A stretch of DNA of 38,117 nt from Planctomycetota bacterium (GTDB taxonomy: Bacteria; Planctomycetota; Planctomycetia; Pirellulales; UBA1268), in contig QWPO01000060.1 of assembly GCA_003669255.1 (NCBI GenBank), positions 1 to 38,117 of the forward strand, written 5' to 3'. Both the position numbers and the translations under genes were made by a program. The notes beneath the pieces are model-generated. The model saw nothing but the letters and a program-made list of their open reading frames with translations, was not told the DNA's origin and did no database searches. Positions 3,826 to 38,117 of this stretch are shown in pieces. Every line of letters begins with the position of its first letter. The first letter of the stretch is position 1.

Positions 3826-4853
3826 TCGTCGTGACCAAGACCTTGATCGGTATGCCGAACATGCATCGCGTTGCAACCCGGCACCTCGGTGAGGCGCGTC
3901 CCATCTTGGGATTCACCCTCGTCGAACTCCTCGTCGTGATCGCGATCATCGCGACCCTGATCGGTCTGCTCCTGCCTGCCGTGCAGAGCGCCCGCGAGTC
4001 GGCCCGGCGAACGCAGTGCGCCAACAGCCTTCGCCAGATCGGCCTCTCCGCCCATGGCTACGAGAGCGCAAAGAAGTTCCTCGTACCGTCGTTCCTCGGC
4101 GACAACTCGCTGATCAGCCAAGCGGGCGGCTACAACTCGTGGCCGACGTGGGCGGCGCTTATCCTGCCCTACATGGAGGAGAAGTCGATCGCCGACCTCT
4201 GGGATCTCAAACGGGTGGTGGCTGCCCAGACGCCCGCTGCCTATCAGACCCCGGTGAAGATGTATTCCTGTCCGTCGCGGCTGCCACCGGTACTCAGCCA
4301 GAACGACTTCGCCACGCCCGGAGGTACGACGTCGGACTACGCGGCCTGTTTCGGAACGCTGATCACGCCCGCGAGCGATACGACCTTTAGTCAGGCCAAT
4401 GGTGCCGTCGTGCCGGCGATCCCATCGATCGGTCCGGGCGACGCGAAGGGCCCAGTGCTTCTGTCGTCGCGACACCAAGTGCCGATCGGCAAGGTCAAGG
4501 ATGGTACGAGCAAGACGGCCATGTTCGGAGAGAAGTGGATCTCGCCCACCGAACCACGCGGCAAGAACGGCGACGCCAGCGTCTACAGCGGCATCCGCAA
4601 CACGCAGCGACGGATGATGGGCTACAGCGTCCCGGAGAGCGGCAACCGAAAGCTGCTTGCGCCCACCTACACGGTCAGCGACGTGCCGATCTCGATTCCG
4701 GGAAGTTATTTCGGTGGTCCACACCCGGAAACGACGTTATTCGTGTTCGTCGATGGACACGTGCAGCCCGTTTCCAATGCCGCTGCCAACGAGGTGCTCA
4801 CGGCAATCGCCACGAGAAGCGGTGAGGAGTCAGTCGACACCAACGGGCTCTGA
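3822..4853 (+). CDS. DUF1559 family protein (prepilin-type N-terminal cleavage/methylation domain plus H-X9-DG C-terminal motif)
   Basis: GFTLVELLVVIAIIATLIGLLLPAVQSARESARRTQC is a class-III (pilin-like) signal and N-terminal helix. The C-terminal GGPHPETTLFVFVDGHV fits H-X9-DG. The listed GTG at 3822 overlaps the upstream stop (GTGA). In-frame ATGs at 3852 or 3861 would give a shorter, more typical leader, so the start is uncertain. Confidence 0.9.
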   Translation: MIVVTKTLIGMPNMHRVATRHLGEARPILGFTLVELLVVIAIIATLIGLLLPAVQSARESARRTQCANSLRQIGLSAHGYESAKKFLVPSFLGDNSLISQAGGYNSWPTWAALILPYMEEKSIADLWDLKRVVAAQTPAAYQTPVKMYSCPSRLPPVLSQNDFATPGGTTSDYAACFGTLITPASDTTFSQANGAVVPAIPSIGPGDAKGPVLLSSRHQVPIGKVKDGTSKTAMFGEKWISPTEPRGKNGDASVYSGIRNTQRRMMGYSVPESGNRKLLAPTYTVSDVPISIPGSYFGGPHPETTLFVFVDGHVQPVSNAAANEVLTAIATRSGEESVDTNGL

Positions 4854-5008
4854 GCGGCGGGCCGGCCCCACCAAATCCTTGCCCGCGTGTCATCTCTGGC
4901 CTATTTTCGGGGACTGGCGATCGTTTGAAAGGACTGTTGCGTAAAGAGGTTTGTTCCTCCTCCTGATCCGCGTGATTGGGAGCCCACTCGGCACGACGTG
5001 ATCAACCC

Positions 5009-8000: not shown

Positions 8001-9298
8001 TCATGGACGGCGTGCTGGCGGGCATCGAGGCGCCGGCCCGGATCATCCACGGCTGGGAGTCGACGTTCTGGTACGGCATGAACCGCACGATTGACGGCGT
8101 CTCGACCCAGTACGCCGGCGACCGCACCGTCTACGCCCAGACCCGCAGTGACATTCGGAACTCATGGCGGGCCTTCAGCGACAATCCGGCGAAATACGAC
8201 GCCTTCGTCGACGTCGGCATGGCCGCCTGGGTGGATAGCGATCCGTACAACCTGCCCGACGGCTGGCCGACGGGATTCCTCAACGATCCCGGCCCGTGGT
8301 CCAACCTCGCCGCCACGCTCGCCTACAGCGACGAGTATGTCTGGACGTGGAGCGAGCACACGAACTACCCGCAGACGCGGGGCGTGCTCAATCCGTTCCT
8401 CGCGTCGCTTGCGAACCGCACGTTCAACACCGGTGCCGAACAGGCCACCGCCTTCACCGAAGACTTCACGACCGACCCGATGAAGAATGGCTGGTCGTTC
8501 GACTTCAACATGCTCGACATTGGCCGCGACATCGGCCGGCTCTCGGTCGCGATGACCACCGACTCCCTCGCCTACGCCTGGTCACAGGCAGATGGCGCCG
8601 TAGACGTGCGCGGCAACTGGAAGCGGGGGGCCTTCGACGCGATCGAAGGGCTCGCGGCAGCCCAGCGGCGGCGATACACGAAGCCGATCGAGGCGGTGAC
8701 CCGTTCGAGCGATATCCATTCGGAAATCGACTTCACTGTCGAAGCCTTTGGCAGCGACCCGGACAACCCGATTCTGCTGGGTCTATTCCACAGCCAGGCC
8801 ACGACCGACCGGCAATCGCTCTGCCTGCGAATCATCGACGGTTCGACCGCGAGCATCGTCCTCGCCGGTGACGGCACGCCATTCTCGCTACCGCTGACTC
8901 CCGTCTCACCGCTCACCGTCGGCACCAACTACCGCGTCGTGCTCGACTACGCCGCCGCCACGCGAACGCTTTCGGCGCAGCTGCTCGCTCGCGGTGGCAT
9001 GACGACCGTCGCGACGGCGACCGCCACGGTGCCTGCGACCGTCGGTTCGTTCGTCCTCGACGAGGCGGGCCTCGCCCAGCGGGAAACGGCCATCGACACG
9101 TTGGCAGCCCAGGCCCATCGGTTCCGTCTCGACGCCTTCGCGTTCGGCGCAGCCCTGCCGGCACAGGCAGTGACTGCCGCCTCCGTGACCACGAGCCAGG
9201 CGACCCCGATCTCCTCCACCGAACTCGCCCTCGCCGCCCTGGCATATGAGCAGCCAAAGACCGTCGGCACGACCGGGGCGAAGAAGCGGTTGATCTGA
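5009..9298 (+). CDS. Large (~1430 aa) secreted multidomain protein: PATR-like region, internal dockerin-like module, LamG/jelly-roll-like region, F5/8 type C (discoidin) domain, unassigned ~380-aa core, second jelly-roll-like region
   Basis: Uninterrupted ORF. The track start is TTG 4976; the first ATG is in frame at 5009 (MAPRSRHTRRR...). The N-terminus is Arg-rich and followed by LEQRRLLAV, not a classical hydrophobic signal. PATR-like LVKRGVGGLRLPSAAAFDGGTAVEAGELTVAR. Dockerin-like GDTNIDGYTDALDATNM / GDNNYDEVFDILDVANF (~nt 6040-6190). Discoidin-like stretch WEPSKAVDGNVGTIYSS...WVALDVG...GLTIYPR...YQIQSS.D.ISWTTV...GLRIYATK (~6884-7296). Confidence 0.85.
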   Translation: MAPRSRHTRRRITTARLPGGEPLEQRRLLAVTASVTSGELRIGFTSSAAAEQVARLSSDGTNYTVRNTNNVSIGTFAVSAVNSITVTGLTTVERFEIPSTSTREIADPITVAATVETTAIGRAIATSSGGVQIGSPAITLTADVTTAAAQTYAGNVTLATGSIVTASTGAADIRFESTVTGVSGSVLVVETAGSAVVLGGLSGSARLVKRGVGGLRLPSAAAFDGGTAVEAGELTVARTKGLGAGGLQVTANAKLKLDAGTSLLDVASLAAATGGQIDIGVGGLRIAAGGYDLAAVRSMLVTGRAGGSWQGASGIVSRDAAAASGRSIGMVVGDDGSLRVAFGADGDTNIDGYTDALDATNMLTGAKFDTGRTASWTDGDNNYDEVFDILDVANFFTNALYDAGPYLPVSTVPTRFSEAWESLATATLPASAWQLQTGGWGAIEQQDVRNAGRKHAVAAGQATRLMRPVDLAAQDHVVLQGWLFSTGSTDRSMLGLASFPTVTNNALVQMGATGKSTYRIEYGNLAAGSTPIEIDTTLPVEAGWHFMRLELVRDTTDATLWQATWRGWNTARTIEKTQSFSWRFDSAGVNWATLGSAAATAGAVAWDNVDIGPLGRVGPPPALPTTASQVVGTASSNLAGWEPSKAVDGNVGTIYSSTSRGATAVATEWVALDVGKVATMSGLTIYPRGNACFPVDYQIQSSTDMISWTTVPGMTFTGQTAPATSVTHTFASAIQARGLRIYATKLSSDGFNHYLQIADMQVPEFLPSDLQAWVSPAELRDKKVINTGIFSRVNPADPDWPSPQYLATHPDYLANTPFDGLTIPVPIDPAWTTSQGLVSQPVYGLNQLTMLNVPIPWSVVQGAVNDLKQVQWGHVTDNFLWYGFSEFASDEDAATKSVNPSSSADWNVVVQNAAICARMCREAGLKGFMMDPEQYGHYPTGEYYPFGLGTAATWRARGEQWIRAVQAEYPEILLNSFFSWGPESEPGGWDDYPNLSHFMDGVLAGIEAPARIIHGWESTFWYGMNRTIDGVSTQYAGDRTVYAQTRSDIRNSWRAFSDNPAKYDAFVDVGMAAWVDSDPYNLPDGWPTGFLNDPGPWSNLAATLAYSDEYVWTWSEHTNYPQTRGVLNPFLASLANRTFNTGAEQATAFTEDFTTDPMKNGWSFDFNMLDIGRDIGRLSVAMTTDSLAYAWSQADGAVDVRGNWKRGAFDAIEGLAAAQRRRYTKPIEAVTRSSDIHSEIDFTVEAFGSDPDNPILLGLFHSQATTDRQSLCLRIIDGSTASIVLAGDGTPFSLPLTPVSPLTVGTNYRVVLDYAAATRTLSAQLLARGGMTTVATATATVPATVGSFVLDEAGLAQRETAIDTLAAQAHRFRLDAFAFGAALPAQAVTAASVTTSQATPISSTELALAALAYEQPKTVGTTGAKKRLI

Positions 9299-9306: not shown

Positions 9307-11190
9307 ATGTCGCACCAAGTAGCATCCGCCGGATCTCGTTACTGGCTGGTCGCGTCATTCACGATCGCAGCCCTCGTCGCTGGTGGCTTGCATCCCGCCG
9401 CCGCGCAGCCCATGACGACCACGGTCACTCAGCCGTTTCTGGGGGTCACGCATACCCACATTGAGACGACCAATCCGCGTCTGCTCGACATGCACCTTGT
9501 GACGGTCGACCTCAGCGTTCCCGGTATCGGCTTCGCGGTGACGCCGTCAAACGGCGCGGCCGCCGGTGAGACAGTGGGGAGGACGACGCGGCAGTTTCTC
9601 GGTGACCAGAAGGTGCAACTCGCCATCAACGGCGGCTTCTCAGCCTGGGTGAGTGGCTCCAACTACGACGCGCAGGGTCTGGCCGCCGCCAAAGGCGAGA
9701 TCTATTCGTCATTCGAGCAATACCGCACGTTCGCCCTCGACATTTCGGCCGACAATGTGGCGACGATCCTCCGCTCACCGAGCGGCACGGGCACCGCTCG
9801 TTACCCCGACATCCCGCTCTACAACACGCTGCCGGGAGAGGCCCGACTGCTCCGTGACGGTGCGATCGTGGCACCGACTGCAAACGAGACGCTGCACCCG
9901 CGGACGGCGGTTGGCCTAAGTAGCGATCAGCGGACGCTCTACCTGTTCACCGTTGACGGCCGCAACACGGGGCACAGCCTCGGTGTCACGCGGCCGGAAC
10001 TGGCTGACTTCATGCGGATGTTCGGCGCCACCGACGCGATCAACCTCGACGGCGGCGGATCGACCACGCTGGTCTTCGCCGACCCGGTCGCCCGCGTCGT
10101 CAACGTGCCGGTCGGCATCGGTGACGTGCCCGGCACGGAGCGGGTGGTGGGGAGCAACTTCGGGGTGTTCGCCCTGCCGATGCCGTCGCCCGCGGCGGTG
10201 ACCGTCAACGTGGCCGGCGGCACACAGACCCAGTGGCAGGCAGGCCAGCCGCTGATCGTCAACGCGCTCTCGCTCACCAAGTCTGGCGGCGGCACGCTGG
10301 TGCTCGACCAGGCAAACACGTTCACTGGACCAACCACGCTCACAGCGGGAACTGTGCGGCTGGCCCACGCCCGGGGCCTCGCAGCCAGCCCCGTCACAAT
10401 CCAAGCTGGCGCGACGCTGGCAGCCGTTCCCGGCGTCCACCCGCTCATCCCCAGCATCACGATCACGGGCGGGACAATCGCAGCAACAGACCTGATCATC
10501 GGGGGCACTGCGGGCATCGGCGGGCTGACGGTCTCCAGCGGAGCGATCTCCGAGTCGACCGCCGTCACGCTGCTCGGCGGCGGACGACTCTCGCTGCCAG
10601 CGGCAAATCAACAGCTATTCTCGTTTCGATCGCTCGCCATCGACGCCTCGCCGACCGGCGGCCTGCTCGACATCGGGACGAGCGTGGTTACGGTGCAGGC
10701 TGGGGGTATCGGGGCCTCCGACCTGGTGGCCGACCTCGCCGCGGGCCGTGGCGACGGCTCGTGGAACGGCACGACGGGCATCGCCTCGTCAGCCGCTCAG
10801 GGCAACCTCCGCATCGGTTGGCTGACGAGCAGCGACGACGCTCTCACCTTTACCCTGGCTGCCCCCGGAGACGTCACGCTCGACAACATCGTCGACGTGC
10901 TCGATGCGGCCACGCTGCTCTCCGCCGGCCGCTACGACAGCGGGCGGGCGGCAGGCTGGTCGGAGGGCGACTTCAACTACGACGACGCCTTCGACATCAT
11001 TGACGCCACCGACATGCTGACAACCGGCCTCTTCAACACCGGCAACTACCTGCCCGCCGCAGGAACCGTGGTGCCAGTTCCGGAACCGGGCTCCGCCGGA
11101 TGGCTGGCTGCGGTGGCCGCCATCGCAGCACGATCCAGCGGCCGAAGACGGGCCAGGTCGCGGCAGTATCAGCCCTGCGTCCAGGCGTGA
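9307..11190 (+). CDS. Phosphodiester glycosidase (DUF2233/NAGPA-like) domain fused to a PATR repeat, dockerin-like module and PEP-CTERM anchor
   Basis: Signal-like N-terminus. Residues ~45-290 carry LAINGGF...HPRTAVGLSSDQRTLYLFTVDGRNTGHSLGVTRPELADFMRMFGATDAINLDGGGSTTLVF, typical of the phosphodiester glycosidase family. From residue ~296 onward comes AAVTVNVAGGTQTQWQAG + PATR (LTKSGGGTLVLDQANTFTGPTTLTAGTVRLA) + GDVTLDNIVDVLDAATL / GDFNYDDAFDIIDATDM + VPVPEPGSAGW-helix-GRRRAR. Confidence 0.9.
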   Translation: MSHQVASAGSRYWLVASFTIAALVAGGLHPAAAQPMTTTVTQPFLGVTHTHIETTNPRLLDMHLVTVDLSVPGIGFAVTPSNGAAAGETVGRTTRQFLGDQKVQLAINGGFSAWVSGSNYDAQGLAAAKGEIYSSFEQYRTFALDISADNVATILRSPSGTGTARYPDIPLYNTLPGEARLLRDGAIVAPTANETLHPRTAVGLSSDQRTLYLFTVDGRNTGHSLGVTRPELADFMRMFGATDAINLDGGGSTTLVFADPVARVVNVPVGIGDVPGTERVVGSNFGVFALPMPSPAAVTVNVAGGTQTQWQAGQPLIVNALSLTKSGGGTLVLDQANTFTGPTTLTAGTVRLAHARGLAASPVTIQAGATLAAVPGVHPLIPSITITGGTIAATDLIIGGTAGIGGLTVSSGAISESTAVTLLGGGRLSLPAANQQLFSFRSLAIDASPTGGLLDIGTSVVTVQAGGIGASDLVADLAAGRGDGSWNGTTGIASSAAQGNLRIGWLTSSDDALTFTLAAPGDVTLDNIVDVLDAATLLSAGRYDSGRAAGWSEGDFNYDDAFDIIDATDMLTTGLFNTGNYLPAAGTVVPVPEPGSAGWLAAVAAIAARSSGRRRARSRQYQPCVQA

Positions 11191-18742: not shown

Positions 18743-18757
18743 AGGGTCTCCGCTGGA

Positions 18758-21804: not shown

Positions 21805-21810
21805 CGGCGA

Positions 21811-23904: not shown

Positions 23905-26900
23905 TCAGGCCGCTGGCTTTACCACTCGCCGCTTTGCCGGCCTGGAGTCCCCGGCCGGCTCCTCGACGACCGGATAGAGAAACACCGGCTTCTCGACGGT
24001 TCCTGCCGGGCGGCGGCCCGGAGCATGCGGGCCGCACAGTTCGGCCGCCATCCGCTCGGCTAGCAGGCGGAGCCGGACGACGGTGTCGGGATGCTCAGTC
24101 GCGACGTCTACGGTCTCGCCGACGTCGGCTTTGAGGTCATAGAGCCGGGGGTTCACCAGTGAGGCCTCGGCGGCGGTGTTCTCCGCGCCTGTGTCATTCG
24201 GCTGCGGCGCGATTACCAGTTTCCAGCGGCCGTCGCGAACCGCTTGGAGAGCTGTTCCCTTGAAATAGTAGTGGGCCTCACGGGCCGATTCGTGGCTCGT
24301 CCCCATGAGCAGGCCCGTGATGTCGCGGCCGTCGATCGTGGGCGTGGCGGCCACCTCGCCGCCGGCCAGGCCGACGAACGTCGGGAGGAGATCGATCGTG
24401 CCAGCAAAGGCATCGCATGTGCTCCCAGCCTGCACTCGCCCTGGCCACCAGGCGATCGTCGGCACCCGGACGCCTCCTTCCCAAGTGCTCGCCTTCGCTC
24501 CCCGCAGCGGACCGACCGACCCGCCATCCTTTCCCTTCGCCGCCCACGGGCCGTTGTCGCTCGTAAAGATCACGAGTGTGTCGCCGTCGAGCCCATCCTC
24601 CCGGAGCGTATCGAGGATCCTGCCCACGCTCCAATCAACTTCCTCAACCCAGTCGCCAAACCGCCCATTGCCGCTCTTTCCCCGAAATCGCTCGCCGGGA
24701 GCGAGCGGCACATGGACTGCCGTGTGCGGCACGTACAAGAAGAACGGTTTTCCTTTCGAATCGCGGATGAAGGCCACAGCCTCGTCGGTGCACCGTTCCA
24801 CGATCCCGCGCTGCATCTCGTCGGTGAGCAGCTCGACGACGCGATCGTCGCGAACGAGCGGCACCACTCGCTCACCCGTCTCCGCGGACTTTTTCTGCAT
24901 GTCGTTGGAGTAGGGGATCCCGAGGTAGCGGTCAAAGCCCTGGCGGCAGGGAAGGAACTCGCGCTGGTCACCGAGGTGCCACTTGCCGAAGCAGGCGGTC
25001 GCATAGCCAAGCGACTTGAGACGCTCGGCCATCGTGACCTCCGTGGGGTTCAAGCCATTCCTTCCAGCCGGAAAGAACACGCCCGGCACCGAGACCCGCA
25101 CCCCGTAGCAGCCGGTGAGAAGCTGGGCCCGCGACACCGAGCAGACGGGCGCGGCGTAGAAACTCGTGAGCTTCATACCCTCGCAGGCCATCCGGTCGAG
25201 GTGGGGCGTTTTTTGTTTCGTGGCCCCGAACGGTCCGATGTCGCCATAGCCAAGGTCGTCGATGAGCACGACCACGACGTTCGGCGGCCGTACCGCGGTG
25301 CGGGTCGCCAGCGGGTCGCCGGCACGATGCTGCGCCGCGGCGAGCGTCGCCTCGAGATCGCGGCGACGACCGGCGACGGCCGGATCGGCGGCGCGATCCC
25401 GCTGCTCGCCTGGGTCGCTCGCGACCTCGAAGACCTGCGTCACCTGTGACCGGGGATAGGCGATCAGCTTCCAGTCGGGAGTGACGACCGCCCGCTGGAC
25501 GTTCTTGTAGGCAAGGAGAATCGATTCGCGAATCGCTGCCTGCTCGCCCCGGACAACCGGCGCCAGACTCAGCCCCTCGCTGTCCCTCGGAGCCGGCACG
25601 CCGGCGAGGTCTCCAAGCGTGGCCGTCAGGTCGAAGAGGTAGGCCAAGGCATCCACCCGGCGGCCTGCGGGCACGCCAGGCCCCGCCATCACCGCCGGCG
25701 CGCGCATGGAGTGTTCATAGAGGTTCTGCTTTCCGAGGAGCCCGTGGCTGCCGAGTGCCAACCCCTGATCGGCGGCAAATAGCACGAGCGTGTCGTCGAG
25801 GCGACCCTTCTTCTCAAGGGCCGCGAGCACCCTGCCTATCTGATCGTCCATCCCTTCGATGAGGGCGTAGTAGTCGGCGAGTTCCGCTGAGATCCGCTGC
25901 GGCGCCAGCGGCCGTGGCAGCGTCTTTTCGTCACGGACCGCGAGGTCGCCGTTGTCGAACGGGTGCTCGGGAAGGAAGTTTGCTGGCGGTGGCGGCTCGT
26001 GACCGTCGTACCGGCGGCGGAACTCCCGCTGTGGCTGCCGCGGGTCGTGCGGCGCGGTGAACGCGCACCAAGCGAAGAAGGGCTCGTCACCGAGGTCTTC
26101 GATGAAGGCCTCGGCAGCGCCACCGATGATCGCCGACGAGTGGCGATCGGTCGCGGCGTCGGGCTCGGGCTCGGCGTGGCCGCGGAACGACACCGTCGGC
26201 AGACCGAAGTGGCCGTGCATCCCGCCGTAGAACACGTGGCTCCCCTCGGCAAAGCAACGGACGAGCGACTCCTTTCCATTGTGCCACTTGCCGGTGGCGA
26301 AGGTCCGGTAGCCGGCCCGCTCGAAGGCCTCGGGCCACGTGTCGCAACCCCCGAGCTGCTCGCGGACGCGAAACAATGACCGGCCCGACAAGAGCATCGC
26401 CCGGCTCGGCACGCAGACGGCCCCCTGCATCGCCCCCATGCAGTACGCCCGGTCGAAGGATGTGCCTCGGGTCACGAGCGCATCGATCGTAGGCGTGCGG
26501 ATCGCCGCGTTACCAAGCGCGTGGATCGTGTCGGCCCGCATGTCGTCGGCGAGGAAGACGATCACGCTCGGCCGGCACCTGGCTTCTGCGGATTCGAAAC
26601 GCTCGCCGTCTCCAGGCTTTTCGGCGATTGGCCGAGACGGAGCGGATGGCCCGTTCGCCGCATCGGCGAACGGGAGCGGCCAGTCGGGATGCGGAACGTG
26701 CTCGCGGTCGAGGATCAACCGCATCCGTTCAGCCACCGCAGGGTTTCGACCTGTGACGTTCGTCGTCTCCGACGGATCGGCCGCCAGGTCGTAGAGTTCG
26801 ATCGGCCCTGGCTCAGCAGGCTTGTTCGGACCCACGGCCCGGCGGATCGCCTTCCAACGGCCGTCCACCGCCGCCTGCCACTTGCCTTCGGTGAGCTCGC

Positions 26901-28170
26901 GGTAGAGCATCCGCTCCGCGGGCGGCTCAGCCTCTCCGCGGAGCATCGCGGCGAGGCTCGTGCCGTCAACACCTGCGGGTATCCGTTCCGCGAGGCCCGC
27001 GAGATCGAGGAGCGTCGGCAGCCAGTCCTCGAAGCCGCTGGGCGAATCGATCACGCGGCCGGCTACAATTTGGCCGGGCCAGACGGCGACCGTCGGCACC
27101 CTGAGGCCACCCTCGTAGGGCGACCCCTTCCAGTCGCGCATGGTGTCGTTGCTCGCGAGTCGCTGCGTGTCGAGGCCGCCAGTTCCCGGCATCGTGGCCC
27201 CGTTGTCACTCGAGAACACGAAGATCGTGTCGTCGGCGAGATTCAACTCATCGAGGAGTTTCATGATCCGGCCCACCTCGCGATCCAGCCGCGTGACCAT
27301 CGCCGCGTAGGTCGCCAGCGGTCGGCGGCATGGGACGTAGCCCCGGCCTCCGAGATATGGCTGCTCGTCGCCGAAGTGATCGTAGTAGCCGGCCAGCGAC
27401 GGCTCGTCGGCGGGCACCTGGAGCGCCAGGTGTGGGACTGTCGTGGGCACGTACAGGAAGAACGGCCTCGTGGCATTGGCCCGCACGAACGCCAGTTGCT
27501 GCTCGGCGATCAGGTCGGCCGAGTAGGCCGTTCCCGAGAAGCTCGCGAAGGCAGCGTCGCCGGGGGGCGGGTCGGCCGGAATCGATCCGCCTCGCGGCAC
27601 AGGCGGGTTGTCGATCTCAACCCGCTCGCGGTCGCTCCAGAGATGCTGCGGATAGTAGCTGTGGGCCTCCCGCTGGCAGTTGTAGCCGAAGAACCGCTCG
27701 AATCCGGAGGCCAGCGGCTCCGACGGGCTCCCTGGAGCGCCAAGACCCCACTTGCCGAAGCAGCCCGTCGCATAACCCGCATCCCGCAGGAGCGACGCGA
27801 GTGTCGCGGTGCCGGCCGGCATGGACGCCTGCCCCTCCGGCTTCGCTTCGCGATTCGAACGAACGACGGCATGACCCGGATGCCTGCCCGTGAGCAGCAC
27901 ACAGCGGCTCGGGGCGCAGACGGCGCTTCCCGCCCAGTGCCGGGAGAGCCGGGTGCCGCGGCCGAACAGGGCATCGATCTCGGGGGTCTTGATATCCCGA
28001 GAGCCCAGGCAAGAAAGGTCGCCGCTGCCGAGGTCGTCACAGAGAAAGAAGACGATGTTTGGCCGACGTGACGCCGGGCTCGTGCCGGCGTCAGCGGCAG
28101 CCGGCTGGAAACGCGCCGGAACGCCCATGCAGAGTGCCAGCACGGCGAGGATCGAAGCCACTCGCATCAT
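23905..28170 (-). CDS. Tri-modular sulfatase: three complete S1 (formylglycine-dependent) sulfatase domains in one ~1421-aa exported polypeptide
   Basis: One uninterrupted ORF. Module 1: FFLCDDLGSGD, CAPSRCVLLTGRH (Cys codon 27916-27918), SSDNG. Module 2: VFLADDMRAD, CVPSRAMLLSGR (26413-26415), GKWH, AADQG. Module 3: VVLIDDLGYGD, CSVSRAQLLTGCY (25141-25143), GKWHLG, TSDNG. The only signal peptide is at the N-terminus (MMRVASILAVLALCMGVPA). GGAGGAGG lies directly upstream of ATG 28170/28167, and the track's GTG 28182 sits inside this RBS. Confidence 0.9.
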   Translation of the reverse strand: MMRVASILAVLALCMGVPARFQPAAADAGTSPASRRPNIVFFLCDDLGSGDLSCLGSRDIKTPEIDALFGRGTRLSRHWAGSAVCAPSRCVLLTGRHPGHAVVRSNREAKPEGQASMPAGTATLASLLRDAGYATGCFGKWGLGAPGSPSEPLASGFERFFGYNCQREAHSYYPQHLWSDRERVEIDNPPVPRGGSIPADPPPGDAAFASFSGTAYSADLIAEQQLAFVRANATRPFFLYVPTTVPHLALQVPADEPSLAGYYDHFGDEQPYLGGRGYVPCRRPLATYAAMVTRLDREVGRIMKLLDELNLADDTIFVFSSDNGATMPGTGGLDTQRLASNDTMRDWKGSPYEGGLRVPTVAVWPGQIVAGRVIDSPSGFEDWLPTLLDLAGLAERIPAGVDGTSLAAMLRGEAEPPAERMLYRELTEGKWQAAVDGRWKAIRRAVGPNKPAEPGPIELYDLAADPSETTNVTGRNPAVAERMRLILDREHVPHPDWPLPFADAANGPSAPSRPIAEKPGDGERFESAEARCRPSVIVFLADDMRADTIHALGNAAIRTPTIDALVTRGTSFDRAYCMGAMQGAVCVPSRAMLLSGRSLFRVREQLGGCDTWPEAFERAGYRTFATGKWHNGKESLVRCFAEGSHVFYGGMHGHFGLPTVSFRGHAEPEPDAATDRHSSAIIGGAAEAFIEDLGDEPFFAWCAFTAPHDPRQPQREFRRRYDGHEPPPPANFLPEHPFDNGDLAVRDEKTLPRPLAPQRISAELADYYALIEGMDDQIGRVLAALEKKGRLDDTLVLFAADQGLALGSHGLLGKQNLYEHSMRAPAVMAGPGVPAGRRVDALAYLFDLTATLGDLAGVPAPRDSEGLSLAPVVRGEQAAIRESILLAYKNVQRAVVTPDWKLIAYPRSQVTQVFEVASDPGEQRDRAADPAVAGRRRDLEATLAAAQHRAGDPLATRTAVRPPNVVVVLIDDLGYGDIGPFGATKQKTPHLDRMACEGMKLTSFYAAPVCSVSRAQLLTGCYGVRVSVPGVFFPAGRNGLNPTEVTMAERLKSLGYATACFGKWHLGDQREFLPCRQGFDRYLGIPYSNDMQKKSAETGERVVPLVRDDRVVELLTDEMQRGIVERCTDEAVAFIRDSKGKPFFLYVPHTAVHVPLAPGERFRGKSGNGRFGDWVEEVDWSVGRILDTLREDGLDGDTLVIFTSDNGPWAAKGKDGGSVGPLRGAKASTWEGGVRVPTIAWWPGRVQAGSTCDAFAGTIDLLPTFVGLAGGEVAATPTIDGRDITGLLMGTSHESAREAHYYFKGTALQAVRDGRWKLVIAPQPNDTGAENTAAEASLVNPRLYDLKADVGETVDVATEHPDTVVRLRLLAERMAAELCGPHAPGRRPAGTVEKPVFLYPVVEEPAGDSRPAKRRVVKPAA

Positions 28171-28211
28171 CACCTCCTCCACCTGATCCGACGAGATCCA
28201 ATGATACGGCG

Positions 28212-31200
28212 TCAGTCACGCGGCGCGAGGACATCGCAGAGATAATCCTTCACGGCGATGTACCGGGGTTTCGACCCCGGATAGGCCAGTTCACAGTCCA
28301 CGCCGACTGCATCGAGCCGCTCCTTGAGCTTCGCGCCCAAGTTGGCCGAGTGTGTCGGGTCTTTCGCTGGCTTGCCCAGATCCGGCGGCGACGCGTAGAC
28401 GAGATAGACAGGCGGATCATCGGCCGAGACCAGCGCGTAGGGCGAATACCTCGCGATCTCGGGAAGGAGCCTGCTGCGGGCCGCGAGGAACTCGGCAAAC
28501 GTCGGGGGTGGAAACGACTCCGCCGGAGTTTCTTCCTTCCCCGCACCCTTCCGCTTCTTGCCGGCGGACTTCCTGACCGCGGGCTTCTTCGCGGGGGTCG
28601 ATTCCTGCTGGCGGCGGTACGCGACCTTGAACGGGTTCTCCGCAGGACCGTCAAGGTTCTCATTGACGAGTTCCGCCTGCACACCCGCCCACCAGCGGTC
28701 GTAGAACTCGGCGAGGCGGCGGACCATGTCCGGGTTGCCATCGGCCACGTCCCGCACCTCGCCCGGATCGGCGGCAACGTCGTAGAGTTCCCAGCCGTCG
28801 GGGCTGTTGGCGACGTTGACGAGGCTCCAACGGCCTTCGCGAACGCGGACGTTCGCGAACTGGCTCGCCGCCGCCTGCCCACGCTTCCAGCGACCCTGAT
28901 GCGTCACGAGCGGCCGGTCGGGCCACTCGGCGGTCGCGTCGCGGAGCAGGGGCACGAGGCTGCGGCCCTCGATCTTCGCCGCGACCTCTGGCGGGACCTC
29001 GACGCCGGCGATCTCGCAGAGCGTCGGCAGCACGTCAAGATGGGCGGTCACCGCCGGCACATCGACGCCCTCAGGCAGCGATCCCTTCCACCGCCAGAAC
29101 GACGGCACCCGCGTGCCTCCCCGCCAGACGGTGCCCTTCGCCCCGCGCATCCCGGCGTTAAAGACGCTCGAACCGTTGGCTGTGCCGTTGTCGGTCGTGA
29201 ACACCACCAGCGTGTCCCCGGCCATGCCGAGCCGTTCAAGTTCGGCGAGCAGCCGGCCAACGTTCGTGTCGATGTTCTCGATCATGCCGTAGAACTTCGC
29301 GATCTGGGCCCGCTGCTTCGGGTCCCCCACGCCCGCCTTCTCAAGCAGGTCGAGGTACACCCCATCCGAGCCCGCCGGACAATCGAGCGGCGCGTGCGGG
29401 GCGTTGGACGTGATCATGCAGAAGAACGGTGTTTCGTTCTTCCTACAGCGGCGCATCCAGGCGAGCGCTTCGTCGAAAAACACGTCGGTACAGTAGCCCG
29501 TCGTTGCCACGAACTCGCCGTCGCTGCGGATCACGGGATCGACGTACCGGTTGCCCTCAACGTCGCCGCAGCTGCCGGGATACGTCTGGCCGATGCCCCC
29601 CGCGCCGTGGATGAACGAGCGGTCGAAGCCGCGACGGCCGGGCTGGTAGGCGTCTTCATCACCGAGATGCCACTTGCCGAAGATGCCGGTGGTGTAGCCG
29701 GCCCTTCGCAGCAGGTCGGGCAGGGTGGTGGCCGAGCGTGCCAACCGCTCCCGCTCATCGATCGTGTGCGTGACGCCCGAGTGGAACTCGTGCCGCCCAG
29801 TGAGCAGCGCCGCCCGCGTCGGGGCGCAGGTGGGGCTCGCATGAAACTCGGTGAGCCGCACGCTTTCCCGATACAGGCGGTCGAGATTCGGCGTACGGAT
29901 CACCGGATTGCCGTGGGCGGCGATGTCCCCGTAGCCCTGATCGTCGGTCATCACGTAGACGATGTTCGGCGGCCACCGTGCGGCCTTTCCCGCCCGTTCC
30001 TTCGCCGACGTCGGCGCGGCGAGCGCCCGGCACTCGTCGGCGATCCGACTCCATTCGGCGTCGAGCGCCCGGACCTGCTCCGGCTGCGCTGCGGCGAGGT
30101 CGTTTGTTTCGCAGCGGTCGGTCGCGAGATCGTAGAGTTCCCACGGCTGCTCCTTGACCGCCACGAGCTTCATGTCGCCCACGCGAGCGGCGCGGTGGCC
30201 TTCGTGGCACCACCAGAGGGCGTCGTGGGCCGGCGGCGCTGCTGGGCTCGCCAGCGACTTCGCGAAACTGCGACCGTGCAGCGGAGGCACGGTGGCGCCG
30301 TCGTGCTCTCGCGGAAGCGGCACCCCGGCGAGTTCCAGCGCCGTTGGCACGACATCGACGACGTGGACGGGCTGGTGGCGGAGTTCACCCCGCGCCGAAA
30401 TGCCGCGCGGCCAGTGGACAATCCAGGGCGTGGCAATGCCCCCTTCGTGGACCCAGGTCTTGTGCCGCCGAAACGGTGCGTTGCAGCAGCTCGACCAGCC
30501 CGGCCCGAGGCATAGAAAGGTCTTCCGCGAACCGGGCGGGGCCGACCGGTCGTGCCCTTCACCGCGGACCATGATCTCGGCCGAGGCGCCGTTGTCGCTC
30601 AGAAAGAGGATCAGCGTTTCGTCGAGGGCCTGCATCGCCTCGAGCTGGCGGACGATCCTGCCGACCTCGCGATCCATGCCTTCAACCATCGCCGCATGGA
30701 TCGCCATCTTGGTGGCCTGAAACTCCCGCTGCTCGGGCGTGAGCGTCTCCCATGGCAGGGGCCGCTCGACCTCGCCGGGGCCAAGCGCCTTCAAGGCGTC
30801 GGGGAACGAGTAGGGAGGGCCCACATCCCGTTCGATCGCGGCTGGTGGGGTCGTCACGATGCCATATTCCTTCAGCCGCGCCACGCGGGCCTGCCGCAGT
30901 TCATCCCAGCCGGGGCGGTAGCGGTCGCGAGTCTTCGCGATCAGATCGGGCGGCGCCTGAAGCGGGAAGTGGGGAGCAGTGAAGGCGACATAGTGGAAGA
31001 AGGGTGTTCCTGAGTGATTCCGCGAGTGCTCGGCAAGGCAGGCGACGGCATGGCCGCCGATCGCCGTCGTGGCATAGAAGTCGTCTGCTCTGCTCGCGGC
31101 TGGCATGCCAGCCGCTCCCGCGGGATCGAAGTAGTTGCTCTGGCCGATGGCGCTGATATCGAGCGACCGATGAAATCCCTGGGCGAGCGGATCGCCGTCG

Positions 31201-31592
31201 ACGTGCCATTTTCCCGAGTGGTAGGAGCGGTAGCCCGCGGGCGCGAGCAGGGCGGGAAGAAGCCGCGCCCAGGCGGGCCGCGCCGCCTTCACGCCACCGT
31301 CGCCTCCCGGCAGCGCATCGCGGCGGATTGCCTGCGCGTAGTAGCCCGTCAGTAGTGCCGCGCGAGTGGGCCAGCAGCGGGCGGTGTTGTAGGCGTTCGT
31401 ATAGCGGAGCCCTCCCGAAGCGAGCCGGTCGAGGTTCGGTGTGTCGATCTCGCCACCCTGGCAGCCAAGGTCGGAGAAGCCAAGATCGTCGGCCAGGATC
31501 ACGACCACGTTGGGCGGGGCAGCCGGCACCGAACCCACCACCGCCGTGGCGGCAACCAGGGCGGCGATGGCGGCTGACCACTGGCCTCGCAT
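28212..31592 (-). CDS. Bi-modular sulfatase with a Lys-rich linker and an extra ~105-aa C-terminal domain of unknown function
   Basis: Signal peptide MRGQWSAAIAALVAATAVVGSVPA. Module 1: VILADDLGFSD, CWPTRAALLTGYY (Cys codon 31374-31376), GKWH, LSDNG. Module 2: VMTDDQGYGD, CAPTRAALLTGRH (29826-29828), GKWHLG, TTDNG. The tail runs from ~residue 995 (nt ~28215-28610). GGAAGGAG lies 6 nt upstream of the ATG. Confidence 0.9.
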   Translation of the reverse strand: MRGQWSAAIAALVAATAVVGSVPAAPPNVVVILADDLGFSDLGCQGGEIDTPNLDRLASGGLRYTNAYNTARCWPTRAALLTGYYAQAIRRDALPGGDGGVKAARPAWARLLPALLAPAGYRSYHSGKWHVDGDPLAQGFHRSLDISAIGQSNYFDPAGAAGMPAASRADDFYATTAIGGHAVACLAEHSRNHSGTPFFHYVAFTAPHFPLQAPPDLIAKTRDRYRPGWDELRQARVARLKEYGIVTTPPAAIERDVGPPYSFPDALKALGPGEVERPLPWETLTPEQREFQATKMAIHAAMVEGMDREVGRIVRQLEAMQALDETLILFLSDNGASAEIMVRGEGHDRSAPPGSRKTFLCLGPGWSSCCNAPFRRHKTWVHEGGIATPWIVHWPRGISARGELRHQPVHVVDVVPTALELAGVPLPREHDGATVPPLHGRSFAKSLASPAAPPAHDALWWCHEGHRAARVGDMKLVAVKEQPWELYDLATDRCETNDLAAAQPEQVRALDAEWSRIADECRALAAPTSAKERAGKAARWPPNIVYVMTDDQGYGDIAAHGNPVIRTPNLDRLYRESVRLTEFHASPTCAPTRAALLTGRHEFHSGVTHTIDERERLARSATTLPDLLRRAGYTTGIFGKWHLGDEDAYQPGRRGFDRSFIHGAGGIGQTYPGSCGDVEGNRYVDPVIRSDGEFVATTGYCTDVFFDEALAWMRRCRKNETPFFCMITSNAPHAPLDCPAGSDGVYLDLLEKAGVGDPKQRAQIAKFYGMIENIDTNVGRLLAELERLGMAGDTLVVFTTDNGTANGSSVFNAGMRGAKGTVWRGGTRVPSFWRWKGSLPEGVDVPAVTAHLDVLPTLCEIAGVEVPPEVAAKIEGRSLVPLLRDATAEWPDRPLVTHQGRWKRGQAAASQFANVRVREGRWSLVNVANSPDGWELYDVAADPGEVRDVADGNPDMVRRLAEFYDRWWAGVQAELVNENLDGPAENPFKVAYRRQQESTPAKKPAVRKSAGKKRKGAGKEETPAESFPPPTFAEFLAARSRLLPEIARYSPYALVSADDPPVYLVYASPPDLGKPAKDPTHSANLGAKLKERLDAVGVDCELAYPGSKPRYIAVKDYLCDVLAPRD

Positions 31593-34144: not shown

Positions 34145-36925
34145 CTACCCGCCTGCCGCCGCGGGCTTCCGCTTCGGCGGCAGGCCGTCAGGACCAAAGG
34201 GATCCACCGGATCGGGATTGGGTGTGGGCATGGCGGCGCCAACCTCCCGCCGCCAGGCCTCGAGTCGAGACCGCAGTTCGGCGGCGCGCTCCGGACGTTC
34301 GGCCGCGAGATCCCGCTGTTCCCCCTCGTCGGCGGCAAGGTCGAAGAGTTCCACCCGGCCGCCCTCGAGGTGCTCGACGATCTTCTCGCGACGGCCGTCC
34401 GGTGAGTCGCCGGCGAGCAGCGCCGCCGCGGGCCGCCCCCCTTGATTGGAATAGTGCGGGTAGTGCCAGACGAGGTCGCGGGCGGGAATCGCCCCGGTCC
34501 CCGAAAGCAGTGGTCGCAGGCTCGTGCCGTCGAGTATCTCGCCGGCCGGCGGCGGGCAACCCCCGAGATCGACGAGCGTGGCAGCGATGTCAAGCGTGGT
34601 CACCGGCACCTCGCACCGCAAACCCGGCTTCACGGTGCTGGGCCAGCGGATGAGGAGTGGCACGCGGATGCCCCCTTCGTAGAGATAGCCCTTACCGGCG
34701 CGAAGCGGGAGGTTCGACGTCGGCGCACCCTCAGCCGTCGACAGGCCGCCGTTATCGCTCGTGAATACCACGAGCGTGTTGTCGACGAGATCCTGTTCCT
34801 CGAGGGCGACGAGCACGGTTGATACCGCCTCGTCCATCTCGTCGATCATGGCGGCATAGACGGGGTGATCCTGCACCGCCCGAGCCGTGCGTTCGCCTTC
34901 GGGAACCTCCCGGGGATCTGCACCCGGCAGCGCCGCGGCGCGGCGCTGCTCCTCGGCGACAAGTTCGGCGGTCGACCGCAGCGGAACGTGCACGGAGTGC
35001 AGCGGTAGGTAGCAGAAAAAGGGACGACCACGGTTGGCAGCGATGAACGCCGTTGCCTGCCGGGCAATCGCGCGGGCGTGGTGCGGATCGTCATCGGGAC
35101 CCTGCGCTGGATTGACGTCGATCGAGCCGGAGGCCTCGAACCCGTGCGACGGCACGTCCGCCGGCGGCCCGAGGTGCCATTTGCCAAAGACCCCGGTGGT
35201 GTAGCCTGCCGCCTTGAGCCGCTCCGCGACCGTAGTCTCATCAGCAGGCAGTCCCCGGAGGTATTCGGCCGGGAGCAGCGATCCGCGCCGTTCGCCGCCG
35301 ATGTAGTTCGTGATCCCGACGCGAGCCGGGAACTTTCCCGTTATCAGGGCTGCGCGGGTCGGCGAGCAGACGGGTGCGGCAGCATAGGCCTGCGTGAACG
35401 TCATCCCGGCGGCAGCGAGGGCGTCAATCGCAGGCGTACGGTAGAACGTGCTTCCTGTGCAGCCGAGATCCCGGGCGCCGAGATCGTCGGCCAGAAACAC
35501 GAGAAGGTTCGGCTTTCGTGGCACGGCCGACGTCGATACCGGTTCGGGCTTCGGCACGCCCGGATCCCACCAGCGGTCGAGCTCGGCCCGCAACCGCGCC
35601 ACCACATCCGGATGCTCTCCGGCAACGTTCGTTCGCTCGTCCGGATCGGCGATGACGTCGAAGAGTTCCGGCTCACCGCGTTCAAAGTTCTCCCGCGACG
35701 CGTCGTCGACGTGTCGCCCCTGCCACGCAGGAAACTGCTTTCCGGGAGCCGGCGGTGCCGGCACGATCAGCTTCCAGCGATCCTGCACCATCCACCGCCA
35801 GAGCAGGCTCGTCGTCGGATCGTCGAGGTCGACGATGGTGTGCGTGTAACACTCACCAAACACCTCCGTGCGGGCTGCGGTCGCCACCTCGTCCAGCAGG
35901 TTTACTCCCGGCAGCCCGACCGGCGACTCGACCCCGCATGCCTCGAGCACCGTCGGGGCGATGTCGATGGTGCTGGCAAGGGCCTCGCTCGTTCGCGGAG
36001 CAATCGTGCCCGGCCGGCGGAACATGATCGGCGTCCGCAGGCCGCCATCGTAGGGGGAGAGCTTCGACCGCGGGGCAAACCGCTTCGACTGGGGATCCTG
36101 GATCCAGCCGTTGTCGGTGACATACACCACGAGCGTGTCACGGGAGAGCCCTTCGCGGTCGAGATGGTCGAGCAGGTCGCCGACAGTGCGATCGAACCGC
36201 TCGACGTTGCCCCAGTAGCGAGCGACGTGGACGCTGTCGGTCTTCGACGAGTAGTGATCGACGAGTTCCTGCGGTGGATCGTGCGGATCGTGGGGCAGCA
36301 TCGGGGCGTACCAGACGAAGAATGGCGTGCCGGCGGTGCGGCAGCGGCCGACGAAGTCATAGATCGGTTGCATGGTGCCACGGCCGATGGCGAGCCCCTC
36401 GTCACCGTGCCGCTCACCCTTCGTCATCCCCTCGTCGAAGCCGCCGCGGGAAAAGTCCCCTTGCCACCACTTACCGGTCTGGAGGCTTTTGTAGCCGGCA
36501 GGGGCGAGCAGTCGCGGCAGCGTGGGCCACTCGTCGAGGTGGCGGTTCATCCGCTCGCGACCGGCGATGAACGCCTTGGTGCCCTGTGGGCTCTGCCGAG
36601 GGCTGCCCGGCGTGTCGGGCGGATCATTGCCGACGATCCTGTGTTCGTGCGGATAACGGCCCGTGATGATCGACGCCAGGCTCGGGCAGCAGAGGCTGCT
36701 CGTCACATAGCCCCGCGGAAAAACGAGGCTCTCCCGGGCGAGTCGGTCGAGGTTCGGCGTCCGCAGGTGCTCGTGACCCATGAAGCCGTAGTCGTGCCAG
36801 TGCTGATCGTCGGCGACGATCAAGACCACGTTGGGACGGGATGGCTGGTCGCCGCCAGCTGCGGCCACGATCCCACTCGTCCCCAGGGCTACGACCGCCG
36901 CCGCGATCCATCTCCTGATTCCCAT
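34145..36925 (-). CDS. Bi-modular sulfatase; the N-terminal module has a non-canonical FGly motif (C-C-P-S-L)
   Basis: An in-frame ATG at 36925 (or 36940) gives the signal peptide MGIRRWIAAAVVALGTSGIVAAA. The 81 upstream codons in the track ORF overlap the divergent sulfatase gene. Module 1: LIVADDQHWHD, LCCPSLASIITGRY, GKWWQG, VTDNG. Module 2: VFLADDLGARD, CSPTRAALITGKF (Cys codon 35366-35368), GKWHLG, TSDNG. Confidence 0.9.
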   Translation of the reverse strand: MGIRRWIAAAVVALGTSGIVAAAGGDQPSRPNVVLIVADDQHWHDYGFMGHEHLRTPNLDRLARESLVFPRGYVTSSLCCPSLASIITGRYPHEHRIVGNDPPDTPGSPRQSPQGTKAFIAGRERMNRHLDEWPTLPRLLAPAGYKSLQTGKWWQGDFSRGGFDEGMTKGERHGDEGLAIGRGTMQPIYDFVGRCRTAGTPFFVWYAPMLPHDPHDPPQELVDHYSSKTDSVHVARYWGNVERFDRTVGDLLDHLDREGLSRDTLVVYVTDNGWIQDPQSKRFAPRSKLSPYDGGLRTPIMFRRPGTIAPRTSEALASTIDIAPTVLEACGVESPVGLPGVNLLDEVATAARTEVFGECYTHTIVDLDDPTTSLLWRWMVQDRWKLIVPAPPAPGKQFPAWQGRHVDDASRENFERGEPELFDVIADPDERTNVAGEHPDVVARLRAELDRWWDPGVPKPEPVSTSAVPRKPNLLVFLADDLGARDLGCTGSTFYRTPAIDALAAAGMTFTQAYAAAPVCSPTRAALITGKFPARVGITNYIGGERRGSLLPAEYLRGLPADETTVAERLKAAGYTTGVFGKWHLGPPADVPSHGFEASGSIDVNPAQGPDDDPHHARAIARQATAFIAANRGRPFFCYLPLHSVHVPLRSTAELVAEEQRRAAALPGADPREVPEGERTARAVQDHPVYAAMIDEMDEAVSTVLVALEEQDLVDNTLVVFTSDNGGLSTAEGAPTSNLPLRAGKGYLYEGGIRVPLLIRWPSTVKPGLRCEVPVTTLDIAATLVDLGGCPPPAGEILDGTSLRPLLSGTGAIPARDLVWHYPHYSNQGGRPAAALLAGDSPDGRREKIVEHLEGGRVELFDLAADEGEQRDLAAERPERAAELRSRLEAWRREVGAAMPTPNPDPVDPFGPDGLPPKRKPAAAGG

Positions 36926-37058
36926 TGTCGTAGACCCCATGCGCGACACCACGGCCGACAGCCTTGTCGGCAACCCGTCCAGGGACGAGATTGAGACAGT
37001 ATGCGGGCAACGACGGCCCGCTGCATCACCCCTGAGTTCACCCCGGAGACGCTCCACT

Positions 37059-38117
37059 ATGGCCGGCATACGATCGCTGGCGGCGGCGCTCCTGCTGGCC
37101 CTCGCGGCCGCGGATGTGGGGGCGGTCGATCCAAACCCAAACGTGATCGTCGTGCTCGTCGACGACATGGGCTGGAAGGACCTTTCCTGCCAGGGGAGCG
37201 AGTTCTACGAGACACCGCAGATCGACCGGCTGGCCGCCTCGGGCATGCGGTTCACGACAGCGTACTCCGCCTGCACCGTCTGCTCGCCGACCCGAGCGGC
37301 AATGATGACCGGCCAGTATCCGGCACGGCTGCACCTCACCGACTGGATCGCCGGACACCACCGGCCGCACGCGAAGCTGCAGCCCCCTGACTGGACCAAG
37401 CACCTGCCGCTCGGGGTGGTGACGGTCGCAGAGCGGCTCAAGGCCAAGGGCTACGCAACCGCGTCGATCGGCAAGTGGCACCTTGGAGGCAAAGAGCAGT
37501 CCCCAGAAGATCAGGGATTCGATGTGAACCTGGGCGGCACCGACAAAGGTCAGCCTCCGAGCTACTTCTCGCCGTACCGGATTTCCGCGCTCTCAGACGG
37601 CCCCGAGGGGGAGTACCTCACTGACCGCGAGGCCGCTGAGGCCGTCGGCTTCATCGAGTCCCACCACGACCGACCGTTCTTCCTCTACCTTGCGCACCAC
37701 GGCGTGCACGCGCCGCTTCAAGCGAAGCCGGAGGTGGCGGCTGGCTACGCAGCAAAGCGACCCGGCATCCCAGCAACACTCGCCACCTACGCGGCGATGG
37801 TCGAGAGCGTCGATGATGCGATGGGGAAAATCCTCGACACGCTCGATCGACTCGGCATCCGCGACCGCACCGCGATCTTCTTCACAAGCGACAACGGCGG
37901 CCAGGCGTCGATCACCGACATGCTGCCGCTCCGCGCAGGCAAGGGCTCGGCCTACGAAGGGGGCATCCGCGTGCCGTTCATCGTGTCGTGGCCTGAAGTC
38001 ACCAAGCCGGGCAGCACGAGCGACGTGCCCGTGATCACGCCCGACATCCCCGCGACGATCCTCGACCTCACCAGGGCGGGGATCGAACCGGGTCAGCCGA
38101 TCGACGGCCGAAGCCTC
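37059..38117 (+). CDS. Sulfatase, 3'-truncated by the window edge (absent from the supplied ORF track because no stop is reached)
   Basis: My own translation from ATG 37059 (frame 3, 353 codons to the window end, no stop): MAGIRSLAAALLLALAAADVGAVDPNPNVIVVLVDDMGWKDLSCQG...CTVCSPTRAAMMTGQYPARLHLTDW...IGKWHLGG...FFLYLAHHGVHAPL...FFTSDNGG...KGSAYEGGIRVPFIVSWP. It has a signal peptide plus all canonical S1 sulfatase motifs. Confidence 0.85.
   Translation, partial: MAGIRSLAAALLLALAAADVGAVDPNPNVIVVLVDDMGWKDLSCQGSEFYETPQIDRLAASGMRFTTAYSACTVCSPTRAAMMTGQYPARLHLTDWIAGHHRPHAKLQPPDWTKHLPLGVVTVAERLKAKGYATASIGKWHLGGKEQSPEDQGFDVNLGGTDKGQPPSYFSPYRISALSDGPEGEYLTDREAAEAVGFIESHHDRPFFLYLAHHGVHAPLQAKPEVAAGYAAKRPGIPATLATYAAMVESVDDAMGKILDTLDRLGIRDRTAIFFTSDNGGQASITDMLPLRAGKGSAYEGGIRVPFIVSWPEVTKPGSTSDVPVITPDIPATILDLTRAGIEPGQPIDGRSL

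Follow-up and report, generated by a model that had tools for sequence, protein, structure and literature searches.

How one reading frame comes to hold three sulfatases, and whether these are three different working enzymes, is the question raised by gene T (positions 23905 to 28170, minus strand) in contig QWPO01000060.1 of a Planctomycetota bacterium. The whole stretch of 38,117 nucleotides (nt) that was analysed is called the window. An earlier note on this DNA had described T as a three-in-one sulfatase with three divergent, apparently intact active sites. The explanation proposed here is that T probably encodes one secreted polypeptide with three independent, competent modules of the formylglycine-dependent sulfatase family S1, each of a different subfamily, arranged like beads on a string, and that the gene originated in situ by fusion of neighbouring genes.

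Three modules in one reading frame

The features of T are listed below. Residue numbers follow the GTG start given after the list unless marked ATG.

23905..28170, minus: triple-sulfatase gene T, 1421 aa from ATG 28170 (open reading frame list, three PF00884 stretches)
28173..28180, minus: Shine-Dalgarno (SD)-like run GGAGGAGG, directly 5' of a tandem ATG ATG start (sequence reading and start/SD scan)
28087..28170, minus: predicted Sec-type signal peptide MMRVASILAVLALCMGVPARFQPAAADA (hydropathy scan, assigned by inspection)
26662..28068, minus: module T1 (aa 39-507), S1_20-like; best solved match 7ANA; conserved C-terminal motif HPDWPLPFAD
27904..27918, minus: formylglycine (FGly) motif of T1, C-A-P-S-R, Cys89 (Cys85 in ATG numbering); invariant in orthologues
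26575..26661, minus: linker 1, 29 aa, AANGPSAPSRPIAEKPGDGERFESAEARC (AANGPS...AEARC), rich in Ala, Pro, Glu and Gly, with 4 Pro
25312..26574, minus: module T2 (aa 537-957), small subfamily without a close solved relative; best solved match 5G2V
26401..26415, minus: FGly motif of T2, C-V-P-S-R, Cys590; kept in all orthologues read
25291..25311, minus: linker 2, about 7 aa, LATRTAV; variable in orthologues
23908..25290, minus: module T3 (aa 965-1425), like human arylsulfatase A (ARSA; S1_1-like), its best solved match; conserved C-terminal tail KPVFLYP...KPAA
25129..25143, minus: FGly motif of T3, C-S-V-S-R, Cys1014; Val replaces the usual Pro or Ala

The mechanical open reading frame (ORF) of T (23905..28182, minus) is uninterrupted, with 1425 aa from GTG 28182 and the stop codon at 23905-23907. 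The true start is likely ATG 28170, because the SD-like run precedes it and because it is the start both in the 98% identical protein P0001 and in the gene call of an independent ENA assembly (L082). P0001 served as the database stand-in, the window protein having no exact-sequence database match. Three full-length Sulfatase (PF00884) stretches were found by Pfam, with a whole-protein E = 7.9e-146, the best of them covering profile positions 1-300 of 301. The module boundaries agreed within a few residues with those of the earlier note, and the motifs it had quoted for the three modules were all present (CAPSR/CVPSR/CSVSR, KWG/KWH/KWH and SDNG/ADQG/SDNG).

Pairwise alignment of T1, T2 and T3 gave 26-31% identity. 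As had been claimed, the modules are therefore not recent duplicates, and a recent tandem duplication is ruled out. Dozens of solved S1 sulfatases were matched by each module. For T1, the top match was 7ANA (E = 2.8e-103), followed by 7AN1 and, lower down, by 9S8A and 9S8X. The last two are S1_20 enzymes of Akkermansia muciniphila, and 7ANA, which we take to be BT1636, derives from a Bacteroides thetaiotaomicron mucin-sulfatase study. T1 resembles the B. thetaiotaomicron S1_20 galactose-3-sulfatases (7ANA/7ANB, 7AN1) and the S1_20 enzymes 9S8A and 9S8X in sequence; 7ANA aligned over nearly its full length and has the identical unusual G-K-W-G-L-G in place of the common KWH. A 16-residue loop of 7ANA is missing from T1, so the substrate subsite may differ. 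The 'multidomain' S1_20 enzymes of A. muciniphila combine one sulfatase with non-catalytic domains, whereas T combines several sulfatases.

For T2, the best solved match, the N-acetylglucosamine-6-sulfatase BT4656 (5G2V, S1_11-type), reached only E = 5.6e-35, in two fragments. Both have an S/A-D-Q-G variant of the metal site, A-D-Q-G in T2 corresponding to S-D-Q-G in 5G2V, but the overall similarity is weak, and T2 probably belongs to another, uncharacterised subfamily. T3 matched human ARSA best (E = 3e-75), a cerebroside-3-sulfatase of SulfAtlas subfamily S1_1 (1AUK/1E2S). The Asp-Asp, Lys-x-His, His, Asp-Asn and Lys positions of the two were all aligned, while the FGly motif is C-T-P-S-R in ARSA and C-S-V-S-R in T3, which is bacterial and lies in a clade found across the Planctomycetes-Verrucomicrobia-Chlamydiae (PVC) bacteria. 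These subfamily likenesses follow the nearest solved structures, and by this measure T1 and T3 resemble galactose-3-sulfate-type enzymes. The nearest solved relatives thus differ between the modules, and each module has its own orthologues elsewhere, on their own or in other combinations, which upholds the claim that different sulfatase lineages were fused rather than one repeat expanded.

Catalytic columns were read from an alignment of the seven sulfatase modules of the window, which are encoded in three co-oriented genes, S, N and T, with PQQ-propeller and ThuA-like genes between them. The catalytic set was complete in T1, T2 and T3, comprising an Asp-Asp pair near the N-terminus, Cys-x-x-x-Arg with LL(T/S)G behind it, Lys in G-K-W-x, a His that follows the central strand, Asp paired with Asn or Gln, and a further Lys downstream. 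The FGly signatures of T1 (CAPSRCVLLTG) and T2 (CVPSRAMLLSG) are canonical, and that of T3 (CSVSRAQLLTG) keeps Cys and Arg and deviates at Val. Each module therefore has the full-length S1 domain, an FGly signature, deviating in T3, and the metal ligands together with Lys/His/Lys. The FGly motifs were retained in all orthologues examined, at module identities of 68-99%. As the earlier note had supposed, the active sites appear intact, since their catalytic residues are invariant in orthologues and their odd features are common to relatives.

The pairwise ratio of nonsynonymous to synonymous substitution rates (dN/dS), calculated against three orthologues in metagenome-assembled genomes (MAGs) from lakes, was 0.15-0.20 in each of T1, T2 and T3, indicating similar purifying selection on all three. 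Each module is thus apparently catalytically competent, as judged from its residues.

Fused, split and rearranged relatives

The best 120 database matches to the full T protein were all multi-sulfatase chains. The modules of these relatives were typed by the closest window module, including N1 and N2 of the upstream neighbour gene N, and the following architectures were counted among the 120 (proteins are given below as P numbers, genome loci as L numbers).

T1 + T2-like module (about 35% identity): 47
T1-T2-T3: 11
T1-T2: 11
T2-T1 (permuted): 8
N1-N2-T1-T2-T3 (about 2390 aa): 4
T1-T3: 3
N1-N2-T1-T3: 2
N2-T1-T3: 1
many other architectures: no count

The three-module order for which the earlier note had proposed a search therefore recurs, and orthologues retain it down to a module identity of about 77%. 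At least two S1 modules of different lineages in one ORF were found repeatedly in independent genomes. T is less exceptional than had been implied, since it belongs to a large set of sulfatase chains with two to five modules; it is commoner and less singular than first thought, and the pattern at family level is richer than the single gene suggested.

The longest chains seen were the five-module ORFs N1-N2-T1-T2-T3 of 2390-2396 aa (P0005, P0002, P0003 and P0014). P0005 (L081, 10001-17191 of a 253-kb contig) lies at a locus with gene S (2 modules), PQQ and ThuA, as in the window, and in L082 and L001/L002 N and T are separate adjoining genes, again as in the window. The fusion in P0005 at the syntenic locus indicates that what is a single chain in relatives is divided between N and T in the window.

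Modules have also been lost. In the closest relatives after P0001 (P0015/16 and L006/7; T1 90-93%, T3 87-88% identical), T2 is absent and the junction is clean and in frame, but more distant orthologues at about 80% identity keep T2, which indicates a recent module deletion. In P0121 and P0122, T1 is directly joined to the extreme C-terminal tail of T, indicating an internal deletion of T2 and T3, and other stand-alone T1 orthologues end 5-6 aa after HPDWPLPFAD. The single-module proteins P0121 and P0122 have kept the final ~25-30 residues of the three-module chain (KPVFL..EEPA..KPARPRVKKPAA), and this retention after the deletion hints that the tail of T may have a role of its own, e.g., in sorting or anchoring.

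Outside the chains, the modules differ in how they occur. Stand-alone T3 orthologues at 67-73% identity were present in about 65 PVC genomes, and stand-alone T2 occurred only as more distant single-module family members (≤~54% identical). When T2 alone was searched against 1.84 billion cluster representatives, the nearest clusters were mostly multi-module proteins of 900-1400 aa, and members of the T2 family at large (1473 clusters with E ≤ 1e-30) were mostly single-module. The corresponding T1-only search listed mostly proteins of about 500 aa and omitted multi-module proteins such as P0001, although its T1 is 99% identical; its candidate selection seems to penalise long targets, and its list gives no basis for a fused-to-free ratio.

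Among species-representative genomes, multi-module ORFs were confined to a few freshwater MAGs of the Planctomycetota/Pirellulales type (L001-L009, L012, L023, L025). In the remaining Verrucomicrobiota and Planctomycetota loci, T3 orthologues were single-module genes that frequently adjoined further sulfatase genes in tandem. No conserved T1/T2/T3 neighbourhood was found outside the fused lineage, T3 orthologues there adjoining varied other sulfatases. Several MAG contigs from lake metagenomes that encode these PVC-type sulfatases (L008, L012, L014, L018, L019, L023, L034-L036, L041 and L047) bear the titles Klebsiella pneumoniae, Klebsiella sp., Alcaligenaceae, Akkermansia muciniphila or Candidatus Kuenenia, which are implausible for their gene content and source, and record-level taxonomy should therefore not be trusted.

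This history is also what would be expected if the fusion were selectively neutral, adjacent operon genes having been joined by small deletions without any advantage and the fused form drifting in and out. Relatives at 70-93% identity include fused and split chains as well as chains with deleted or permuted modules, the order is not fixed, both T1-T2 and T2-T1 being found, and in other Verrucomicrobiota and Planctomycetota loci the matched sulfatases, chiefly T3 orthologues with varied neighbours, are tandem single-module genes. Against this stand the high frequency of multi-module chains in this lineage, with up to five modules, and the persistence of T1-T2-T3 to about 77% identity, which suggest tolerance at least and possibly benefit. 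Neutral fusion is a serious possibility, though a doubtful one, and as regards chemistry it is compatible with the proposed explanation.

Integrity of the chain and of its active sites

The chain of three competent modules is proposed to be made and exported as one polypeptide. In the hydropathy scan, the top eight 15-mers all fell within residues 1-22, in the sole strongly hydrophobic segment of T, and no internal segment resembling a signal peptide was found along the whole chain. The earlier note had named internal translation starts as a finding that would speak against a single chain. In the start/SD scan no SD-preceded start codon was present at the module boundaries, whereas the native start has GGAGG; the only in-frame ATG or GTG codons near the boundaries are without an SD and already belong to the first beta-strand region of the module that follows. 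Internal starts are thus disfavoured, although this is not proof, as SD use is variable in Planctomycetes.

The linkers had been described as short and Pro-rich. Linker 1 has 4 Pro in its 29 aa and linker 2 is only about 7 aa long, but the first 11 residues quoted as linker (PHPDWPLPFAD) are the conserved C-terminus of T1. In orthologues, linker 1 is 13-29 aa long, hypervariable and always in frame (aa identity 0.2-0.3, dN 0.7-1.2), and in the region of linker 2 (aa 951-963, 13 codons) dN/dS was 0.23-1.06. Over both linkers, aa identity was 20-40% and dN 0.6-1.2, with no stops or frameshifts. The linkers therefore evolve almost neutrally yet stay in frame. In the AlphaFold model, linker 1 had a predicted local distance difference test score (pLDDT) of about 30 and is predicted to be disordered.

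Such short, disordered and unconstrained linkers would be accessible to proteases, so T might be a polyprotein, the chain being only a vehicle for export and expression that is cut at the linkers after secretion to release three enzymes. The occurrence of T1 and T3 as separate genes elsewhere is in keeping with this. One would, however, expect a dedicated processing site to show conservation, and no conserved protease recognition site was found at the module junctions among orthologues; a hypervariable linker 1 and a linker 2 of ~7 aa without a conserved motif argue against one. Cleavage into three enzymes is thus considered unlikely, and the chain would persist intact.

The active site of T3 needs separate consideration. 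In family S1, conservation of the middle Pro of the FGly motif is 87%, with Ala as its chief substitute and each of the other residues in <1% of sequences (PMC5066984). Among 80 genome loci recovered with the T protein, 82 of 196 sulfatase modules have C-x-V-x-R. They belong to T3 orthologues (67-73% identity), most of which are encoded on their own, as single-module genes, in MAGs of Verrucomicrobiota and Planctomycetota. Since Val is kept across T3 orthologues, it is a conserved clade signature and not a sign of decay. T3 orthologues across these MAGs (most of L010-L080), nearly all with C-S-V-S-R, are unusually well conserved between phyla by the standard of sulfatases, which suggests either strong constraint or horizontal transfer.

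The rarity of Val, together with the clearly degenerate site of the neighbour gene S (module S1, C-C-P-S-L and KWW), could be taken to mean that one module, most likely T3, is catalytically dead and binds sulfated glycans for the others. But every other catalytic residue of T3 is intact, C-S-V-S-R occurs mostly in stand-alone genes of two phyla, and dN/dS of T3 equals that of T1 and T2, so a dead module is judged very unlikely. An assembly or annotation artefact, in which a sequencing error or missed stop merged three adjacent genes, is effectively refuted: high-GC DNA does yield long spurious ORFs, many of them antisense here, but the same continuous ORF is present in independent assemblies from several lakes (P0001 from ENA, several JGI and NCBI clusters, MAGs L001-L005), with linkers that differ in length and always keep the reading frame. 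Long antisense ORFs (24244-25449, 26521-28071 and 28059-30515, plus strand, 401-818 aa) do overlap the sulfatase genes. Their translations are rich in Arg, Gly and Pro, and rather than genes they appear to be the customary by-product of coding DNA with 67% GC.

The proposed explanation, one secreted chain of three competent modules, can be set out as follows. Neighbouring sulfatase genes would have fused end to start in a freshwater Pirellulales-like planctomycete lineage, within which the same small module set is repeatedly fused, split, deleted in frame and permuted. The chain would be translated from a single start, each Cys (CAPSR, CVPSR, CSVSR) would be converted to formylglycine before or during Sec export, and the one N-terminal signal peptide would direct export. 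Once in the periplasm or on the cell surface, the three modules may act on one class of sulfated glycan, each taking off a different sulfate ester. Fusion would provide co-expression, one export event and 1:1:1 co-localisation, with possibly a kinetic benefit of tethering, while activity would not require it.

Several points weigh against this explanation or parts of it. The AlphaFold models, built for T1-T2 from 21 aligned orthologues (pLDDT 66.7, predicted template modelling score (pTM) 0.48) and for T2-T3 from 14 (pLDDT 48.2, pTM 0.40), were of too low confidence for reading interfaces, module packing or a shared groove from them. The Pro of the FGly motif matters for maturation of the FGE type, and as Val is rare family-wide, maturation of T3 may depend on another maturase or a more tolerant one; the scan of ORFs in the window turned up neither an FGE nor an anSME gene. 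The claim that the fusion fixes the stoichiometry and proximity of three specificities is plausible as a prediction, but it is weakened by relatives with split, deleted and permuted modules, and the occurrence of such versions in close relatives indicates that the modules can do without tethering, whose effect may be close to neutral. The suggested substrates follow only from distant homologues and from neighbouring sugar-catabolism genes.

Gene neighbourhood and wider meaning

Other genes of the window are listed below.

28212..31592, minus: gene N, two sulfatase modules (N1, N2) and a C-terminal alpha/beta-hydrolase relic; fused to T in relatives
34145..37168, minus: gene S, two sulfatase modules, probable start near 36925; module S1 with C-C-P-S-L and KWW
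15438-23565, minus: co-oriented run downstream of the sulfatases, beginning with a DUF485/SSF symporter pair and a 182-aa ORF syntenic with an acetyltransferase of L082
same run, next: UxaE-like epimerase, xylose-isomerase-like TIM-barrel protein and a 152-aa ORF at the position of the RbsD/FucU gene of L082
same run, last: aldo-keto reductase, amidohydrolase_2 and Zn-dependent alcohol dehydrogenase
1114..3825, plus: protein with PATR repeats and a PEP-CTERM anchor
3822..4853, plus: DUF1559/N-methyl pseudopilin-like protein with an N-terminal methylation motif
4976..9298, plus: 1440-aa protein with an F5/8 type C (discoidin) domain
9307..11190, plus: NAGPA phosphodiester-glycosidase-like protein with a PATR repeat

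The order S-PQQ-ThuA-N-T is syntenic in L082, L081 and L001. N lies upstream of T, with a gap of 29 nt to the GTG ORF or 41 nt to ATG 28170. Its C-terminal part of about 95 aa (28215-28499, minus) gave no Pfam match, but in BLAST against relatives it was 58-67% identical to the last ~76-94 residues of a BD-FAE/Abhydrolase_3 domain. It is regarded as a truncated relic because the N-terminal two-thirds, including the GGSAG nucleophile region, are missing. In relatives, the alpha/beta-hydrolase domain lies between N-type modules and T1 (P0026, P0043, P0046, P0047 and P0079) or at the C-terminus (P0120). The first four of these proteins, of about 2240-2320 aa, have four sulfatase modules plus the esterase domain.

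In module S1 of gene S (35549-36925, minus), Leu stands for Arg in C-C-P-S-L and K-W-W for K-W-H, and CxPxL is kept in the orthologues of L001, L006 and L007. In SulfAtlas, Leu or Ile at the Arg position of the FGly motif is reported for a small number of sequences from Planctomycetes and Lentisphaerae, which are suggested to be inactive. Module S1 of gene S could be non-catalytic or repurposed.

The run downstream of T would suit the import and oxidation of a liberated sugar or sugar acid, possibly a desulfated monosaccharide. No glycoside hydrolase was found in the neighbourhood of the sulfatase genes. Upstream in window coordinates (58-11190, plus), large secreted or surface proteins are encoded; their DUF1559, PEP-CTERM and PATR features are planctomycete hallmarks.

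A fusion of two sulfatase domains in marine planctomycetes was noted by Kim et al. in 2016 (PMC4807772). As in T, unrelated S1 modules lie in one ORF, which is read as a fusion of adjacent genes. In contrast, those fusions have two modules and were mentioned in passing, whereas T has three and its syntenic relatives five, with fusion, fission, in-frame deletion and permutation in addition. A literature search for three-domain or tandem sulfatases returned only this two-domain note and a remark in the SulfAtlas methods. No published description of sulfatase chains with three to five modules, or of their combinatorial reshuffling, was found in that search.

Multi-catalytic carbohydrate-active enzymes, e.g., the Caldicellulosiruptor enzymes with two catalytic domains, likewise join several catalytic modules of complementary specificity by flexible linkers in one secreted chain. 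They consist of glycoside hydrolases or esterases with carbohydrate-binding modules, whereas in T all modules are sulfatases, each needing its own Cys-to-formylglycine conversion.

A more speculative and rather improbable extension is that the chains are evolvable 'desulfation assembly lines', whose modules are inserted, deleted and reordered in frame at the linkers like cassettes and, being tethered, act cooperatively or processively on one polysaccharide. If this were true, a lineage could within a short time adapt a single secreted enzyme to the way in which a particular glycan is sulfated, and module content would be a readable code for substrate structure.

For annotation, the finding means that multi-sulfatase proteins should be split into modules before subfamilies are assigned. 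It also raises the questions of how three to five Cys-to-formylglycine conversions are achieved per chain of 150-250 kDa, how such chains are exported and what tethering gains on multiply sulfated substrates, and the widely conserved C-S-V-S-R clade of T3 offers a way of probing which motif sequences the maturation machinery accepts. The access of microbes to sulfated polysaccharides from algae, mucins and exopolymers is governed by sulfatases, most subfamilies of which have no known substrate. Chains with three to five specificities are natural 'guilt by association' experiments in this respect, since recurrent fusion makes it probable that the joined modules share a target glycan.

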